Source: Armatimonadota bacterium (GTDB lineage Bacteria > Armatimonadota > UBA5829 > DTLH01). Taken from it: DNA of 43,511 nucleotides. This document shows, one piece after another, positions 7,349 through 36,514 of the stretch. The stretch is taken from contig JBDKSP010000057.1 in the NCBI GenBank assembly GCA_039680575.1, positions 1-43,511 on the forward strand, in the 5' to 3' direction. Under the pieces are notes generated by a model. The model was not told where the DNA came from. It made no database searches and saw only the letters and a list, made by a program, of their open reading frames with translations. Numbering within the stretch: position 1 is the first letter of the stretch; each line of letters starts with the position of its first letter. The translations under genes were made by a program, and so were the position numbers.

Positions 7349-7380
7349 AGCTGTCAGCTTTCAGCGGTCAGTTTTCAGCC
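7349..7380. repeat. Heptamer tandem repeat (AGCTNTC-like)
   Basis: agctgtc agctttc agcggtc agttttc; same family at 11781-11800 and 33203-33232. Confidence 0.75.
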
Positions 7381-9156: not shown

Positions 9157-9630
9157 TTACGGTCTGGATTCCACAGGCACATGCGAGCAGTCCACGCCGG
9201 TGAACGGCCCTATTTTCTTGATATTGTCGCTCATCTCTCGGACGACTTCCGCGAACCGTATACCCTCGGATGCGGAGACCCACTCGAAATGGAACCGCTC
9301 CGGCTCTATTCCTACGCTCTGGAGAAGCTCCTTTATGAGCATAATCCGCCGTCTCGCGAAATAGTTTCCCTTGGCGTAGTGGCAGTCGCCGGGGTGACAC
9401 CCAAGCACCACTACTCCGTCGAACCCCTTCTGGAACCCTTTAAGGATAAAGAGCGGATTGACGCGCCCGGAACACGGGACGCGGATAATCCTGAGGTTCG
9501 CCGGATGCTTCAGCCTGGAGCTTCCTGCAAGGTCTGCTCCGGCATAGCTGCACCAGTTGCACAGGATGCCTAGAATCACCGGCTCCCAGTCTTTTTCTGT
9601 CTTCTGTTGTTCTATAATCTCTTCGTCCAT
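9157..9630 (-). CDS. flxD: MvhD/FlxD [2Fe-2S] subunit
   Basis: CNWCSYAGADLAG, RVPCSGRV, GCHPGDCHY, WVSASEG. Confidence 0.93.
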   Translation of the reverse strand: MDEEIIEQQKTEKDWEPVILGILCNWCSYAGADLAGSSRLKHPANLRIIRVPCSGRVNPLFILKGFQKGFDGVVVLGCHPGDCHYAKGNYFARRRIMLIKELLQSVGIEPERFHFEWVSASEGIRFAEVVREMSDNIKKIGPFTGVDCSHVPVESRP

Positions 9631-9762: not shown

Positions 9763-11768
9763 TAAGCTTCTGTATGTATATTCGCTAATGCATCGATTTC
9801 GGCCAATATCTGGCTGTCCTCGAAGCCTCTTAACTTCGCTGAAAGCGACCGGCAGCCGGCGGCGCAGGTCCCGCAGCCGTGGCAGACGCCTTCGTTGACC
9901 CTTGCCACTGTCCGCATAACCTGGTTTTCGCGGGTCGATTTCGCCCGGTCGACCACTTCGACCATATCTATCGCCGTAAACGGGCATACGCTCGCGCAGA
10001 GCCCGCAGCCGACGCAGGTTTCTTCGTTTATGTAAGCGATCATCGGCTCGGAAGTGAGCGCCTCTTTCGAGAAGAGCCCTGTCACCTTCGACGCCGCGCC
10101 GGATGCCTGTGCTACCGTATCAGGAATATCCTTAGGATACTGGCAGGCTCCCGCAAGATAGATTCCTGCGGTCAGCACCTCGACCGGCCTCAGCTTCGGG
10201 TGCGCTTCAGCGAACCAGTTATACTGGTCTGTCGATATTCCGAGCAGTCTCGCAAGGTCTTTTGCATCGCTCTGAGGCTCCATAGCGGTCGCGAGGACCA
10301 CCATGTCAGCTCTCACCTCGACTGGCTTTCCAAGGAGCGTGTCCGCGCCCCGGACGACCATTTTGCCGTCTTCGGGGAAAATCCGGCTCACCCGGCCCCG
10401 GATATAGGTCGCGCCGTAGTCCTCGATGGTCCTTCGGACGAACTCTTCATATCCCTTGCCGTTTGCGCGGATGTCCATATAGAAAACGTAAGCCTTCGCG
10501 TCGTGCAGCTTGTCTCTTAAGAGCAGCGCGTGCTTGGCGTTATACATGCAGCAGACTTTGGAGCAGTAAGGATAACCGTGCTCGTCGTCCCTCGACCCTA
10601 TGCAGGAGAGGAATACGACGGACTCAGGGACCTTGCCGTCACTTGGCCGCTTGATCTTGCCTTCGGTCGGGCCGGATGCGTTCATCAACCGCTCGAACTG
10701 GATTCCGCTGATGACATCCGGGTACTTTCCGTAGCCGTATTCTCCGAGCTTGGAGTAATCCCAAAGCTTGAACCCTGTCGCAACGACGATTGCGCCGATC
10801 TCTTCGGTCACGATCTCGTCTTCCTGTTCGTAATCGATTGCTCCGGCGGGGCACATCTTCTGGCAGACGCCGCATTTACCCTTGACGAACTGGCGGCAGT
10901 GCTCGCGGTCTATCACAGGGACGTTCGGGACGGCCTGCGGGAACGGGACGTAGATCGCATGCCGCTCGCCGAGCCCTTCGTCGAACTCATTCTTGAGCCC
11001 TTTGACGACGCACTTCTCATAGCAGACGCCGCAACCTGTGCACTTGGTTGAATCGACGCTTCTTGCCTTCTTCCGAATCTTGACCTTGAAGTTGCCGACG
11101 TAACCGGAGACCTCTTCGACCTCGGAATACGACATAATCTGGATATTCGGGTGGCTCGCGCAGTCTACCATCATAGGGGTCAGAATACACGCGGCGCAGT
11201 CGAGCGTCGGGAAGGTCTTATCATACTGGGCCATTCGGCCGCCGATGGAAGGTGTCTTTTCAACGAGGACGACTTTGTAGCCTGCTTCTGCGATGTCGAG
11301 CGCAGCCCTGATTCCGGCCACGCCGCCGCCGATAACCATAGCTTTCTTGGTGAGCGGGATGTCCTTCGTGAAGAGCGGCTCGTCCTTTTTGGCCTTGGCG
11401 GCCATCATGCCGACAATATCGATGGCTTTCTCAGTCGCGGCATCGTGGTCTTCGTGGACCCAGGAGCAGTGCTCTCTGATGTTTGCCATCTCGGCGAAGT
11501 AGGGGTTCAGCCCTTCCTGCTCAATGCAGCGCCGGAATGTAGGCTCATGCAGGCGCGGTGAACACGCCGCCACTACTACGCGGTCCAGCTTGTGCTCCCT
11601 GATGGCCTCCTTTATCAGGTTCTGGCCCGGCTCAGAGCACATATATTTGTAATTAGTGGCAAAAACGACATCGGGAAACTCAGCCGCAGCTTGTGCGACC
11701 TTATCAACATCGACCGTTTTTGCTATGTTCGTGCCGCAGTGGCACACGAAAACTCCGATTCTTGCCAT
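9762..11768 (-). CDS. hdrA: Heterodisulfide reductase subunit A
   Basis: IGVFVCHCG, ANIREHCSWVH, GGGVAG, KTFPTLDC, YCSKVCCM, ferredoxin motifs. Confidence 0.97.
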   Translation of the reverse strand: MARIGVFVCHCGTNIAKTVDVDKVAQAAAEFPDVVFATNYKYMCSEPGQNLIKEAIREHKLDRVVVAACSPRLHEPTFRRCIEQEGLNPYFAEMANIREHCSWVHEDHDAATEKAIDIVGMMAAKAKKDEPLFTKDIPLTKKAMVIGGGVAGIRAALDIAEAGYKVVLVEKTPSIGGRMAQYDKTFPTLDCAACILTPMMVDCASHPNIQIMSYSEVEEVSGYVGNFKVKIRKKARSVDSTKCTGCGVCYEKCVVKGLKNEFDEGLGERHAIYVPFPQAVPNVPVIDREHCRQFVKGKCGVCQKMCPAGAIDYEQEDEIVTEEIGAIVVATGFKLWDYSKLGEYGYGKYPDVISGIQFERLMNASGPTEGKIKRPSDGKVPESVVFLSCIGSRDDEHGYPYCSKVCCMYNAKHALLLRDKLHDAKAYVFYMDIRANGKGYEEFVRRTIEDYGATYIRGRVSRIFPEDGKMVVRGADTLLGKPVEVRADMVVLATAMEPQSDAKDLARLLGISTDQYNWFAEAHPKLRPVEVLTAGIYLAGACQYPKDIPDTVAQASGAASKVTGLFSKEALTSEPMIAYINEETCVGCGLCASVCPFTAIDMVEVVDRAKSTRENQVMRTVARVNEGVCHGCGTCAAGCRSLSAKLRGFEDSQILAEIDALANIHTEA

Positions 11769-30947: not shown

Positions 30948-32030
30948 CTATAGGTTTTCGTTACTTTTCCTGTTGTACCTTCGCAGAATTTTGTATTGCG
31001 TGTCCCTTTGAGCCGCATCGAACCCCGCGCCATGGATCAGTTCTATAAGCTGTTCTTCTGAAAGCCTGAAGCGGCATCCGGCGGCAGCCACTACATTTTC
31101 TTCAATCATCGTGCTGCCGATATCGTTCGCGCCGAACCTGAGCGCAATTTGCGCAACTGCATCGCCCTGAGTGACCCATGACGCCTGGATATTCGGGATA
31201 TTATCCAGAACTAGCCTGGAGATCGCTAAAGCACGGAGATAATCGTGCCCGCCGACAGTATTCCCGCCGAGTATGGTATTTCCGGGCTGATATGTCCATG
31301 GGATGAATGCAGTGAACACCCCCGTGCGGTCCTGAAGGCCGCGTATTGTCATCAAATGCTCTACCCGGTCCTTCATGCTCTCTATGTGGCCGAAGACCAT
31401 AGTGGCTGTAGCGCGCATGCCGAGCTCAGCTGCCGTCTCCATTACCTCCAGCCACTCCTCCACGCTCGCTTTTCCCGGTGAGACCAGCACGCGGACGGAA
31501 TTGACGAGTATTTCGGCTCCGCCGCCGGGAAGGGAATCGAGACCTGCATCTTTAAGGCGGGAAAGCGTGGTCTTGATGTCCAGCCCGGACGTATCGGCAA
31601 TATGAACCACCTCGGGCGCCGAAAGCGAGTGGATCTGCACGGAATATTTGGCCTTGATCGCGCGGAAAAGGTCCTCATAAAACTCGATCTTGAGCCCCGG
31701 ATGGAGCCCTCCCTGCATCAAGAGTTCTGTCGCGCCGAGCTCGACGGCCTCACTGACCTTTTCAAGCACCTCTTCAGTCGAAAGCACATACCCTTCCGGG
31801 TGCCCCGGCGGGCGGAAGAATGCGCAGAACTTGCAGCCTGAAACGCAGATATTGGTGAAGTTGATGTTTCGGTCTATGACATACGTGCGCGCCGGCTCCG
31901 GGTGCAGCTTATCGCAAAGCGCGCTTGCGGCGACTCCCAGGTCCGACAGACCGGCATACTCGAAAAGTCCGAGCGCTTCTTCTCTCGTAATTCGATGACC
32001 ATCGGCGACGATATCCATTATTTCGATCAA
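30948..32030 (-). CDS. mqnC: Cyclic dehypoxanthine futalosine synthase
   Basis: DRNINFTNICVSGCKFC, LMQGGLHP, QASWVTQG, EENVVAAAG. Confidence 0.92.
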   Translation of the reverse strand: MIEIMDIVADGHRITREEALGLFEYAGLSDLGVAASALCDKLHPEPARTYVIDRNINFTNICVSGCKFCAFFRPPGHPEGYVLSTEEVLEKVSEAVELGATELLMQGGLHPGLKIEFYEDLFRAIKAKYSVQIHSLSAPEVVHIADTSGLDIKTTLSRLKDAGLDSLPGGGAEILVNSVRVLVSPGKASVEEWLEVMETAAELGMRATATMVFGHIESMKDRVEHLMTIRGLQDRTGVFTAFIPWTYQPGNTILGGNTVGGHDYLRALAISRLVLDNIPNIQASWVTQGDAVAQIALRFGANDIGSTMIEENVVAAAGCRFRLSEEQLIELIHGAGFDAAQRDTQYKILRRYNRKSNENL

Positions 32031-32035
32031 TATTC

Positions 32036-33250
32036 CTACTCCTCGACCACATTCACTTCCGGCTGAAAGCCGATCAACCCATGCTCAAAAGCTTTTTGTC
32101 CGAATATTCTTAGCGACTCTATCTCCCGCTGCCCCAGATCATAGCGTATTACCTTCGCCAGGTATTCCTCGCAGAGTTTATGCGGCAGCCCCAGTATCGG
32201 GGCTTGCTCTTCTGCGATTTTGGGGGTGCGCTTTAGCCCTTCCTCCTTAGCCGAGGCGAGGACAGCGATGAGTTCCGGTGTAATCGACTCCTTCGGCCCG
32301 GCCCAGGTCGCGAATACTGCAGGAAGCCCGGTAAGATTCAGCCATTCCTCTCCGAGATCAAGTATATTCAACCCTGTCTTATCGCAAAGCATCGCAGGGT
32401 CGCCGATAATAAGCGCCGCATCGCACATCGAGAGCATCTTTTCCAGCTTCGGTTCGCAGTCGACATATTCCGGCTCCAGTCCATAGTTCTCTGAGAGGAC
32501 TATCCGAAGGAGCGCCCGTCCGGAAAGCGAACTCGTATCGGCTGCGACGGTTTTTACATCCTTAAGCTCCACTTTCGAAAGCATGAGCACGCTCGTTACC
32601 GGGCCATCTGACGAGATACAGATCCCCGGCACAATGGCAAAATTCGGATTTGAAAGAGACGCGAAGCTGGATACCGGCGCTGCGGCGATCCGGCCTTCGG
32701 CAAGCATCCGCGCAAGCCGAGAAGGAGGCGCATATACCAGTTCCCACCCATCCGGCAGCCGGCCATGCTCGAACGGATAGACCAGAGGCTTAACGTTCAG
32801 ATATGGTAGACAGCCAAGCTTGGGGGATTGGCGGAGACTCGTGCTCCGGGGCGAATTATGGTCCAACCTCGACACCTGCGGTGTCGGCTTCGGCAGCAAG
32901 CAGTCCGAAGCAAGGGAAAGAGATTGGTGTATGTCGTGCTTCGGGATGGACTGCGATCCCGAAGCATAATAAGAGATAGACAGCAAGGGGCATGGATGCC
33001 CTGGAGAATGTGGACCGGGGCATGGATCCCCCGGTCCATCAGCCACAACATCATTCCGAGCTTGACTCGGAATCCAGGAAAAGAATGGACCCTGAATCAA
33101 GTTCAGGGTGACGTCTTTGTTGTTCAGGGTAACGTGGTTGTTGTTCAGAGTGACATCTATGTCGTTCAGGATGATGTATTTGTCGTTCAGAGCGATGTCT
33201 TTGCTGATAGCTGACGGCTGACGGCTGATTGCTTTTTTCTGTTCCCTCAT
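32036..33250 (-). CDS. mqnA: Chorismate dehydratase with a repeat-derived N-terminal extension (start uncertain)
   Basis: Core from about 32825: LPYLNVKPL, GPVTSV, AALIIGDPA, DLGEEW..TGLPAVFA. Confidence 0.88.
   Translation of the reverse strand: MREQKKAISRQPSAISKDIALNDKYIILNDIDVTLNNNHVTLNNKDVTLNLIQGPFFSWIPSQARNDVVADGPGDPCPGPHSPGHPCPLLSISYYASGSQSIPKHDIHQSLSLASDCLLPKPTPQVSRLDHNSPRSTSLRQSPKLGCLPYLNVKPLVYPFEHGRLPDGWELVYAPPSRLARMLAEGRIAAAPVSSFASLSNPNFAIVPGICISSDGPVTSVLMLSKVELKDVKTVAADTSSLSGRALLRIVLSENYGLEPEYVDCEPKLEKMLSMCDAALIIGDPAMLCDKTGLNILDLGEEWLNLTGLPAVFATWAGPKESITPELIAVLASAKEEGLKRTPKIAEEQAPILGLPHKLCEEYLAKVIRYDLGQREIESLRIFGQKAFEHGLIGFQPEVNVVEE
33101..33205. repeat. Degenerate tandem repeat, 5 x 21 bp
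   Basis: GTTCAG-initiated units at 33101, 33122, 33143, 33164 and 33185. Confidence 0.85.
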
Positions 33251-34341
33251 CTGACCACCTCGTTATAAACGGTGTCGCGCTCGACTGGGATGGTGCCGGT
33301 CTCTTCGATCATCCGGCGGATTTCTTCGACGGTTCGGCTCTCGGGAGTCTCGGCCCCGGCCCTGTGGGTGATCTTCTCCTCCACCACTGTACCATCCACG
33401 TCATCCGCGCCGAATGAGATGGCGATCTGAGCGAGCTTTAAGCCCAGCATGATCCAAAACGCCTTGACATGCGGGAAGTTATCGAGCATCAACCTGCCTA
33501 CCGCCACTACTTTGAGGTCGTCCATCCCGGAGCGCGGGCGGGCGAGGTACGCAAGGTTAGTGTTCTCGTGATGGAACCGAAGCGGGATGAAGCTCATGAA
33601 CCCTCCGGTCTCATCCTGAAGCTCTCTTAGCTTAATCATGTGGTCGACCCGCTCTTCGGAGGTCTCGATGTGGCCGTAGAGCATCGTCGCGTTCGACTTC
33701 ACGCCCTCTTTGTGCGCCGCGCGCATCACGGAGAGCCATTTTTTACCGGACATCTTCTCCGGGCAGACCATTTCCCGCACTCTGGGAGAGAAAACCTCCG
33801 CTCCACCGCCCGGGAGGGACCCCAACCCTGCGGCTTTCAGCCTTTTCAGGCATTCTTCGACGGTAAACCCTCCGATTTCGGCAATATGGGCAATCTCGAC
33901 CGCTGTAAACGCCTGAAGATGGACACCGGGGAAGCGGTCTCTTAAGGTCGAGAGCATTCCGGTGTAATAGTCGAACGGCATAGTGGGGTGCAGCCCGCCG
34001 ACAAGGTGAAGCTCCGTAAATTTGAGATCGGAGTAGTATTCCTCGGCGCGCGCGAGGATCTCTTCTATGCTCATCGTGTAGGCGCCGTCTTCTCCCTCGC
34101 TTCTGGAGTAGGCGCAGAACTTGCAGCGGTTCTTGCAGACATCGGTATGGTTGATGTGCCGGTTGACGATATAGTAGGTCTTATTGCCGTTTATTCTTCT
34201 TCGGACAAGGTTCGCCGCCCAGCCAATGGCCGTTATATCGTTGCTTTCAAATAACCTGACTCCGTCATCGAACGAAAGCCGCTCACCGGCCTCGACTTTT
34301 TCGATTATATCCGCAATATCCAATTTTGTTAGCTGATTCAT
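33247..34341 (-). CDS. mqnE: Aminofutalosine synthase (radical SAM)
   Basis: NRHINHTDVCKNRCKFC, ELHLVGGLHP, AFTAVEI, HVKAFWIM. Confidence 0.92.
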   Translation of the reverse strand: MNQLTKLDIADIIEKVEAGERLSFDDGVRLFESNDITAIGWAANLVRRRINGNKTYYIVNRHINHTDVCKNRCKFCAYSRSEGEDGAYTMSIEEILARAEEYYSDLKFTELHLVGGLHPTMPFDYYTGMLSTLRDRFPGVHLQAFTAVEIAHIAEIGGFTVEECLKRLKAAGLGSLPGGGAEVFSPRVREMVCPEKMSGKKWLSVMRAAHKEGVKSNATMLYGHIETSEERVDHMIKLRELQDETGGFMSFIPLRFHHENTNLAYLARPRSGMDDLKVVAVGRLMLDNFPHVKAFWIMLGLKLAQIAISFGADDVDGTVVEEKITHRAGAETPESRTVEEIRRMIEETGTIPVERDTVYNEVVR

Positions 34342-34370
34342 GTTTTCTGTATCTTGATCCTATTATTCAA

Positions 34371-34997
34371 TTATTTCGGTATGGTAAAGAGCAATATTAC
34401 AATCACCAGGCCGTAGCAGATCGCATTCGCAGTCCAGGCCCATGCTTCGGCAGGATCACCGTTTACCGAGCCGTCTTCGTCCCATGCAGGTCTTTTTTCA
34501 ACACCTTTCCTTGCTGCCCTCTTGTCCCACCATGTGGCAGCAACGCCGGACACGGCGAGAAGTATCGCAAGTGCCACATTAACTTGCCAATCCGGGACGA
34601 GCTCCCCTTCAATCGGGACAAATGCCACACAACATAGCACCGGAATCCGAAACGACATTGCGACTATACTGAGCGCGACAGCAACAAGCGGTACTCCGAC
34701 AAGTGTAGACACAGCCGATGCTTTAAGCGCCAGGAGAAAGCTGCTTCCCCAGCCGGTTTTTATTATAAGCCTCGCGGCAAGAACCTTGACCAGAAGGAAT
34801 ACCAAAAACAAAGCCCCCAAAGCCACCGCCCCGGGAACGATGAGCAATATGGGCAGAGCAGCACCCGCTGTTGCATGCGCCGGAGCACACAAAAGAGTGA
34901 TAAAAAGCGAAATTGCCAGCACGAGCTGCCAATTGTTTCGAGTCATTTGTCTAGTCTCTCTTTTATGCTGAAATATCTCTTTAAACCAGATAATCAT
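34371..34997 (-). CDS. Hypothetical multi-pass membrane protein (start possibly 34946)
   Basis: Several hydrophobic segments; co-oriented within the mqn operon. Confidence 0.7.
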   Translation of the reverse strand: MIIWFKEIFQHKRETRQMTRNNWQLVLAISLFITLLCAPAHATAGAALPILLIVPGAVALGALFLVFLLVKVLAARLIIKTGWGSSFLLALKASAVSTLVGVPLVAVALSIVAMSFRIPVLCCVAFVPIEGELVPDWQVNVALAILLAVSGVAATWWDKRAARKGVEKRPAWDEDGSVNGDPAEAWAWTANAICYGLVIVILLFTIPK

Positions 34998-35047
34998 ACT
35001 CTTCTATACGCATGGAAGCCAGTTATCGTCTCATGAATACATCCAGC

Positions 35048-35088
35048 AGCGCAAATATAAAGAAAGAAATGCTCACGCAGCCGTTCAT
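35048..35088. repeat. 41-bp direct repeat of the ubiA/mqnP 3' end (other copy 36564-36604)
   Basis: AGCGCAAATATAAAGAAAGAAATGCTCACGCAGCCGTTCAT is identical in both places. Confidence 0.95.
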
Positions 35089-35113
35089 TCGCGTTTGTTT
35101 GCCTGCATGCCGG

Positions 35114-36514
35114 CTACTTATCCAGCGCCGAGAGCAGCTCTTGCGGGACTTCAACCCATTGAGGAACCCCGGCGGTACGGAGCCGCCGAACGATTGCCAG
35201 CAACAGACGCACGTAATCCGCTTCCGGCAGCATTACAGGAATTGTTATTCTTTTGTGCTTCTTATTACTGCCAATATACAGGAATACTCCTGCAGGAACT
35301 CTCAGCCAACAGGCTGCAGTCACATCCGAAAACGCGATAGTTTTCAACTTGCCGTTCTTATCGACGCTGATTTGATCATTCCGCAGCTCTATTGATTTGA
35401 TATTGAATCCCGCAGGTGCATCCACGGGTTTCCAGTCCATCTCTTTAGGCACGCTCTTCGGGATTTCATTCCACAGAGACCTTACCGATTCAGTGATATG
35501 GACATTGTACGCCTTTCCATACTGACGAAGATACTGCCAGATCGAAGCAGCAAGACCGAGATTGAGCGTTGCAGTGCCCGACATAGAGAAAACTTTGCCT
35601 TTATGCTTCAGTGTAAGTCTCGGTTTTCCACCAGGGCTCTGTGCTATCCAGGCATCTTCAACATCGGACCATGGAATGAAACTCTTTGACAGAGCTCTTT
35701 TCACTGTCAGCCCAAAGCTGTCGGACCTTATATACTGTTCTTCCAAAAGAATACGTTTTACGAAATTGATGTAGAAAAGAATGAGCGCGGTTGCCAGTAC
35801 TGCAGAGCCGATATTACCTATCAAGGTGTGAGGTAAGTGCCATAGGCAGTACAGCCACCCAATGAACATGCCTCCCGTTAGCAAAACAAATACCAGACTC
35901 AGAAATCCTGACATTTCTCCATGTGAGCCGTGCGCATCGACAACTTCAAGCTCCGGCAGGTAAACCGGATTATTTCGGTCTACCTGTGACGAAGCCCGAA
36001 TTCTTTCATCGCAGGCTACATTGTGACGCCAAAGATGGTATTTAATAGATGCTTCGAGTGCTGCATGCTCCATTACACTGGATGAGACGGAAAATATGCC
36101 ATGCTGCGTTTTGAACCTGTAGTACAGGCTACCAAAGCGCGATTTAGCGAGCGATGCTTCACGTATATCACTCCAGAGGACGCGCCGTTTGGTGAAAACC
36201 TTGTGGACAGTCAATCCTCCAGAGTCAGTCTGCCAATAGTTCTCAGCATAGAAAAGCCGACGTACTACCCATGTATCGAAGAAAGCAGCAAACACGACAA
36301 TCACAACAAGCAAGCAGCCATCGCCAAAGCTGCATGTGTTGGTAACTAATACGACCAGAGGTGCAATCACTAAAAATGGCGTAAATAACAATGCGAAAAG
36401 CAGAAATATAGACGCAAAAAGAGCGCTGATACAACGATTACTCTTGTTGCCCGCTTCGACTTCCTCTAAATCAGGTTGCTCAGAGCTTTTGCACTGCGTA
36501 TCTTCGTTATTCAT
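35114..36514 (-). CDS. Membrane protein with repeated bacterial PH-like domains
   Basis: TM pair plus GLTV..W.D[IV] unit twice, and a third degenerate unit. Confidence 0.7.
   Translation of the reverse strand: MNNEDTQCKSSEQPDLEEVEAGNKSNRCISALFASIFLLFALLFTPFLVIAPLVVLVTNTCSFGDGCLLVVIVVFAAFFDTWVVRRLFYAENYWQTDSGGLTVHKVFTKRRVLWSDIREASLAKSRFGSLYYRFKTQHGIFSVSSSVMEHAALEASIKYHLWRHNVACDERIRASSQVDRNNPVYLPELEVVDAHGSHGEMSGFLSLVFVLLTGGMFIGWLYCLWHLPHTLIGNIGSAVLATALILFYINFVKRILLEEQYIRSDSFGLTVKRALSKSFIPWSDVEDAWIAQSPGGKPRLTLKHKGKVFSMSGTATLNLGLAASIWQYLRQYGKAYNVHITESVRSLWNEIPKSVPKEMDWKPVDAPAGFNIKSIELRNDQISVDKNGKLKTIAFSDVTAACWLRVPAGVFLYIGSNKKHKRITIPVMLPEADYVRLLLAIVRRLRTAGVPQWVEVPQELLSALDK

Follow-up and report, generated by a model that had tools for sequence, protein, structure and literature searches.

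The window, that is, the whole stretch of 43,511 nucleotides that was analysed, is contig C57 of the genome of an Armatimonadota bacterium (hereafter G000; 2.97 Mb in 122 contigs, 96.8% complete). It carries on its minus strand a futalosine-pathway operon in which mqnE, the gene of aminofutalosine synthase (33247..34341; TIGR03700, 505.6 bits against a cut-off of 434.55), is followed by a 404-aa mqnA open reading frame (33250..32036 in the ORF listing) and by mqnC (30948..32030; TIGR03699, 483.8 bits against a cut-off of 428.1). No sigma-70-like promoter was found in 32700-33400. Two membrane-protein-like ORFs (34371-36514) lie between mqnE and ubiA, an order that is apparently swapped in G001, a sister species of the same genus with 84% core identity to G000.

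Sequence comparison and structure prediction indicate that the extended ORF encodes an intact chorismate-dehydratase core at residues 144-404 (32036..32821, minus strand). Specifically, residues 144-388 match PF02621 with 170.9 bits (cut-off 26), the best match of the core among PDB sequences has an E value of 1e-27, and its predicted fold resembles solved chorismate dehydratases with Foldseek TM scores of 0.86-0.88 (target-length normalised). In addition, N152, S220 and Y363 align with Asn17, Ser86 and Tyr242 of ScMqnA (PMC9672406). A resemblance of the MqnA ORF to TAL repeats was discarded, the matches being weak and no stretch passing.

The last codons of mqnE contain the putative Shine-Dalgarno (SD) sequence of mqnA, a GAGGTG within conserved Glu-Val codons (33256..33261, minus strand), and 5 nt further on the TGA of mqnE overlaps the mqnA ATG in an ATGA (33247..33250, minus strand), just as the first-pass annotation of this DNA had read it. 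The same annotation had estimated about 140 stop-free codons ahead of the core; the count is 142, between M1 and K144 (32822..33247, minus strand, 426 nt), with 0 stops in frame and 1-8 stops in each of the five other frames.

Repeat modules of the insert

The whole insert is repeat-derived. In the direction of transcription, it begins with a run of heptamers of the AGGGAAC and TCAGCCG types (33200..33247, the heptamers themselves being recognised at 33204-33236; 61 HMM matches in G000), followed by five 21-bp units (33101..33205; 22 matches), a palindrome pair that corresponds to a CGTC-tagged REP dimer (33044..33114; 138 matches), a doublet of the REP-type unit GGGGCATGGAT (32988..33042; 41 matches), hairpin A, TGCTTCGG..CCGAAGC (32934..32968; 109 matches), hairpin B with a CGACACC stem (32868..32913; 16 matches) and a degenerate 3′ arm of hairpin A (32826..32855; 43 matches), all on the minus strand. 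An in-frame GTG (32875) lies inside hairpin B and an in-frame TTG (32866) just after it. All modules named by the first-pass annotation occur here and are scattered over G000. Each of the seven module HMMs gave 0 matches in the reversed-genome control, and the HMMs recovered the copies reported at 342 and 21953; the heptamers reported near 7349 and 11781 are visible by reading the sequence and fall below the HMM cut-off. The matches group into 303 stacks in G000, and the mqnA stack, from which the modules were themselves defined, contains all seven, the next richest stack containing four.

Judging from their sequences, the seven modules would reduce to about four families (CGTC-type REP, RAYT-linked REP, TGCTTCGG hairpins and heptamers), since the 21-mers repeat, in tandem, the head of the palindrome pair, and a single TGCTTCGG..CCGAAGC core is common to the three hairpins. 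The CGTC dimer is built of a CGTC tag, an 8-bp stem, a 5-nt loop and a CCA tail, its second tag being mutated at the mqnA locus. Inverted copies of GGGGCATGGAT on contig C33 of G000 (9332-9383, plus strand, and 9992-10041, minus strand) flank a PF01797 (Y1 transposase) gene. A second Y1 transposase gene of G000 (L103; C71:68828-69394) lies between inverted repeats with a GTAG tag, which belong to another abundant family. In G001, a CGTC unit stands on both sides of a 95-aa GIY-YIG gene (L106, contig C62), where 21-mer-like units are also found; tblastn returned no homolog of this gene in G000, and a GIY-YIG fragment on C67 of G000 has no module matches nearby. No inverted pair bounding the whole mqnA stack, a feature of MITEs, was found.

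Moreover, heptamers, 21-mers, CGTC dimer and hairpin B recur in this order as one intergenic block on contig C84 of G000 and on C21 of G001, which suggests that part of the mqnA stack was pre-assembled and probably arrived as one block. The first-pass annotation had proposed successive insertions of unrelated intergenic repeats that kept the frame: the intergenic families and the keeping of the frame through indels stand, while "unrelated" and "successive" are weakened by the small number of families and by the pre-ordered block. When the block of G001 (L039) is compared with its ortholog in G000 (C84:149-377), another repeat element is seen within the CGTC hairpin loop in G001 only, and many CGTC copies of G000 start at the point where that loop holds the extra element.

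The modules belong to intergenic repeat families, an assignment supported by their distribution. Against 2316 genes called in G000 with our own dicodon gene caller, 287 of the 303 stacks fall in no called frame, and the same holds for 535 of 566 in a k-mer census. The 16 stacks inside frames comprise 13 N-terminal, 2 C-terminal and 1 internal; four of them, mqnA included, were covered by the ortholog comparison, and most of the other 12 have their own downstream ATG. On contigs C43 (L036) and C122 (L037) of G000, coding cores are likewise preceded by long open frames that contain repeat stacks. A Pfam search of the MqnA extensions of G000 and G001 gave no match, and Rfam a single chance-level match far below the gathering score. 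A protein search with MqnA residues 1-143 retrieved only the protein itself, its sister-species ortholog and the NuoM of G000 among 263 candidates, and nothing among 281 longer ones, which is weak evidence.

Empty and filled junctions at mqnA and elsewhere

mqnA was found in 35 of the 41 genomes searched, which were compared by families (f1, f2 and f3, with f1 consisting of six genomes, among them G000, G001, G003 and G004), and the junctions were counted without one incomplete locus (L030) and two with no mqnE end (L029 and L094). In f2 and f3 the site is empty: all 22 loci with an mqnE end have an ATG or GTG 0-1 codons before K/R-L-G, and these starts overlap the mqnE stop by 29-38 nt (19 loci) or by 4 nt (one), or lie 11 nt behind it (two). 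Two metagenome loci have the same empty site. Coupling of the start to the mqnE end is accordingly ancestral, and the repeats follow it. All six f1 genomes, instead, carry in-frame extensions (142, 150, 31, 42, 16 and 17 codons), and four of them (G000, G001, G003 and G004) share the same ATGA start; in G003 and G004 the site holds runs of heptamers, as in G000, and these too are in frame. Stops or frameshifts were looked for in these relatives and none was found, the extension being open in frame in G001 as in the rest of f1. Metagenome and genome scans, which found 3 and 4 loci, brought up no further members of the genus.

The mqnA stack of G001 is a different one, of 150 codons and in frame. 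Its shared part agrees with that of G000 in the modules, in their order and in the site; it lacks four of the 21-mers (84 nt) as well as the doublet (63 nt), its 3′ part is a long run of other repeats through which the frame is open throughout, and the overall difference is +24 nt. The two stacks share ancestry and are not independent. At the level of strains, contigs from two sequencing runs of one study (X2 and X3) have +9 nt directly behind the ATG, and those of X2 also -42 nt, corresponding to two 21-mers fewer; indels of 21-mers are frame-neutral by length and constitute no test of frame retention.

Repeat-filled reading frames are found in other genes as well. A pair of genes that we infer to be nuoM and nuoN, from their PF00361 matches, is joined by an [AG]TGA overlap in all eight loci examined, the other 12 of 20 loci having been left out at 31-40% identity as likely paralogs. 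The C-terminal tail of NuoM, which is independent of any start-codon assumption, measures 4 aa in G009, about 84 in G000 (L034:286-2037 on contig C70, where it ends at the ATGA overlap), 160 in G001, 67 in G005 and 110 in G007 (loci L050, L052 and L055 for the other genomes). The tails of G000 and G001 have the CGTC unit alone in common and differ in length by +228, while those of G005 and G007 are made of repeats of their own genomes, with 50 and 46 other matches, respectively.

The third junction is that of an 874-aa gene behind an LptF/G gene (L035:1211-3835 on contig C89 of G000; L069 in G001). It has no Pfam match, and from its position one may guess that its product is LptD-like. Ahead of a signal-like hydrophobic stretch, this gene carries 68 codons derived from repeats in G000 and 181 in G001; no such stack was seen at this start in G002-G005, where the distance between the upstream stop and the start of the gene is -4 to +25 nt. 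Between G000 and G001 the length changes by 313 nt between anchors, that is, by 324 from the ATG, the spacer differing by 11 nt.

In ValRS (L033:343-3030 on contig C37; relatives L043-L047), a loop before the anticodon-binding domain is occupied by hairpin B in G000 and G001, and by runs of heptamers in G003 and G005. At yet another junction, G001 L088 (14127-14160), compared with contig C47 of G000 where the spacer is 1 nt, hairpin B replaces the ATG region; the filled allele is open in the downstream frame, the ATG is lost and a TTG is the sole start candidate. The co-directional intergenic cases with a readable empty allele, which are few, have spacers of at least 24 nt.

Frame retention, translation and rival readings

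In the six terminal inserts (mqnA, nuoM and the lptF/G neighbour, each in G000 and G001), the host frame is free of stops, and each of the 30 other frames contains at least one. Under a null in which intergenic repeat DNA is concatenated at random and scored as open and in register, the probabilities are 7.6e-4 and 6.2e-4 for mqnA, 8.1e-3 and 2.8e-4 for nuoM, and 1.9e-2 and 1.5e-4 for the lptF/G neighbour; the mqnA locus had been picked for its openness and the nuoM and lptF/G cases of G000 came from an open-frame scan of the 303 stacks, and it is the orthologs that represent fair tests. Among intergenic frames of 426 nt, 19 of 1284 are open. As a control for length, about 14% of G001 was examined (430 kb, in part picked from contigs already known to carry repeats), which gave 21 repeat-bearing junctions with anchors in G000. 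When the three loci are set aside, 18 junctions remain; one shows no length change and only one of the other 17 a change by a multiple of 3, unlike mqnA (+24) and nuoM (+228), where the differences are multiples of 3.

These observations are best accommodated by a repeat stack that has grown at a coupled junction, filtered for frame, and is translated as an N-terminal tail of MqnA, a reading that we consider probable. According to this model, the REP-type and heptamer repeats of the lineage would usually insert between genes. At a spacer-less junction, where a start overlaps or abuts the upstream stop, any insertion would fall in one of two frames, and the survivors would be the frame-keeping, stop-free versions only. 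With the mqnA start pinned by an SD within conserved codons of mqnE, the stack would become a translated tail of 142 residues. The heptamer run was probably there first, a pad onto which the REP blocks then landed or recombined. Selection would act on frame and coupling and not on the peptide, which seems the simplest account of the data.

Unlikely, in our judgement, is a false extension, in which the mosaic between the two cistrons is not translated, MqnA is made from the TTG at 32866 (or the GTG at 32875) and the open frame results from chance and ancestry. Several modules are in fact stop-free in all three sense frames, and under the most conservative null, which keeps the modules of the stack and their order and draws the register at random, the probability is 0.033; in addition, the dicodon score of the insert is -0.17 against +0.23 for the core, and many N-terminal REPs are described as probably extragenic (PMC3733652).

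The TTG also has an SD-like match of -8.3 kcal/mol, to be compared with -11.9 kcal/mol for the ATG at 33250 and -0.2 kcal/mol for the GTG, energies computed against what we take to be a generic anti-SD sequence; the GTG is thus without SD, and that of the TTG sits in a predicted stem, the predicted accessibility being 0.35 for the TTG and 0.32 for the ATG. Against the false extension speak, moreover, the part between ATG and TTG, which is open and in register across indels of 63 nt and 9 nt that, in contrast to those of the 21-mers, are not frame-neutral by design, and the TTG counterpart of G001, which is in frame and still about 73 repeat-derived codons ahead of the core. The in-frame heptamer inserts of G003 and G004 lack the TTG module altogether, and the C-terminal tails of NuoM are left unexplained. 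We infer that translation starts from the ATG at 33250; both starts, ATG and TTG, could be in use.

Far less probable is that the extension or its RNA has been selected for a function, be it that the peptide forms a domain or that a regulatory leader tunes mqnA. The block of hairpins A and B is 96% identical over 113 nt between G000 and G001, as against a divergence of 34-42% at four-fold sites (49/116 and 48/142 differ), the RNA of the insert folds strongly (z -5.8), and a terminator-like site is found on the sense strand at 33109-33089 (2 found, 0.6 expected). Yet orthologous intergenic repeat copies are as conserved (86-100% in the eight with at least 30 aligned nt), which might reflect constraint, hairpin repair or conversion, and the substitutions in the insert show no third-position bias (2/2/3 by codon position); on the former ground purifying selection at the peptide level was rejected. 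The modules are also freely swapped and read in several phases, hairpin A in all three and hairpin B in five combinations of strand and phase, the CGTC dimer being read in its stop-free phase only, and no Pfam match, nor any Rfam match near threshold, points to a domain or a known RNA. Since modules are read in any open phase, the peptide appears to be arbitrary, and the new peptide on a housekeeping enzyme that the first-pass annotation had foreseen stands in a neutral sense only. AlphaFold, run on an alignment of 18 rows with almost no depth in the tail, gave no confident structure for the insert: pLDDT is below 50 for residues 1-41 and 44-138, and 239 residues, which include most of the core, reach at least 90. 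Low values in the tail would be expected either way with so shallow an alignment; the 142-residue extension is probably disordered and floppy.

An assembly artefact, with the junction wrongly joined up from repeat copies, is barely credible. The genome is in 122 contigs and 33005-33098 is bridged by none of the contigs listed, but the independently assembled G001 has the same modules, order and site, single contigs from each flanking gene reach deep into the stack, and contigs of another study likewise enter it from both flanks. Run X1, whose sample may be the source itself and which would then not be independent, has contigs identical to the window over 32000-33004 and 33099-34400; contigs of this comparison also show 1-nt gaps at 33006-33233 with a summed depth far above single copy, and the gaps are attributed to other repeat copies.

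Beyond the single locus, it may be supposed that in repeat-rich Armatimonadota the spacer-less junctions are recurrent sinks for repeats, where ribosome run-through to the coupled start or stop, and not the protein, keeps 60-180 codons open, a generalisation towards which we lean, if only slightly. NuoM is the clearest pointer to selection on coupling, because an early stop would leave the conserved protein unshortened, and in four genomes of three genera different repeats are nonetheless read through to the [AG]TGA. As a counterpoint, an extension of 68-181 aa before a signal-like stretch is hard to square with normal export. If true, core metabolic proteins would tolerate long arbitrary tails that are species-specific and turned over rapidly between species, which would offer a natural experiment on how new protein sequence arises, and translational coupling would suffice to impose a frame filter on hundreds of bases of repeat DNA. 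In-frame REPs at N-termini are usually dismissed as misannotation; empty outgroups, the stack of the sister species, strain indels and the nuoM twin make the case testable on genomes. In terms of annotation, a repeat-filled extension would be likelier to be real where the junction is ancestrally spacer-less.

Comparison with known repeat systems

The first-pass annotation had likened the insert to Rickettsia palindromic elements, and the comparison is apt for the CGTC-tagged REPs, which include RPE-4 and RPE-6 (Di Nocera 2013, PMC3733652), and not for RPE-1. Elements of the RPE-1 type are described as single elements of about 150 bp whose peptide is conserved, almost half of them in genes (PMC10969869). 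The mqnA case shares with them the fusion of palindromic repeats in frame into housekeeping genes (PMC10969869), but differs in its multi-module stacks, in the arbitrary phase and in having just 16 of 303 stacks in called frames.

Partial resemblances are found to other systems. Like BIME/NIME and RAYT-associated REPs (PMC3184786, PMC3733652), the stacks are mosaic clusters of small hairpins, and GGGGCATGGAT flanks a Y1_Tnp gene in inverted orientation; unlike those mosaics, which are described as intergenic, the mqnA stack is open in the host frame from end to end. Like the mycobacterial MIRUs, these are repeats within operons, with open frames whose ends overlap adjacent genes (PMC3184786); however, MIRUs are presented in that source as having a short ORF of their own, whereas here the repeats are joined to the protein upstream or downstream, and in mqnA no stop intervenes ahead of the core. 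The CGTC unit flanking the GIY-YIG gene of G001 recalls the Ssn/SRM pairs (PMC11893778); the published degenerate SRM pattern, which fits at best with 3 mismatches and has 11 exact matches in G000 against 17 in the reversed control, says little either way.

CGTC-tagged REPs appear, on our analysis, to be the closest published class. They are reported as mostly intergenic, a minority lying within genes and in frame, many of these at the N-terminus (PMC3733652), and the repeats studied here are likewise dispersed, form inverted dimers and lie predominantly outside called frames. In particular, the CGTC unit of mqnA matches the anatomy of CGTC-2 as described (PMC3733652). On the other hand, several families are stacked here, and the same junctions have been refilled with different repeats in each species. 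Published REP clusters encode 20-30 aa, at most 43-82 aa (PMC3733652, whose Additional file 3 may list longer ones), as compared with 68-181 codons here. No paper on stacks of REPs at coupled junctions, nor any on REPs from Armatimonadota, was found in a literature coverage that is mostly open-access. In other words, REPs in frame have been published before, and what would be new in these bacteria is their length, their multi-family make-up and the repeated refilling of the same spacer-less junctions.
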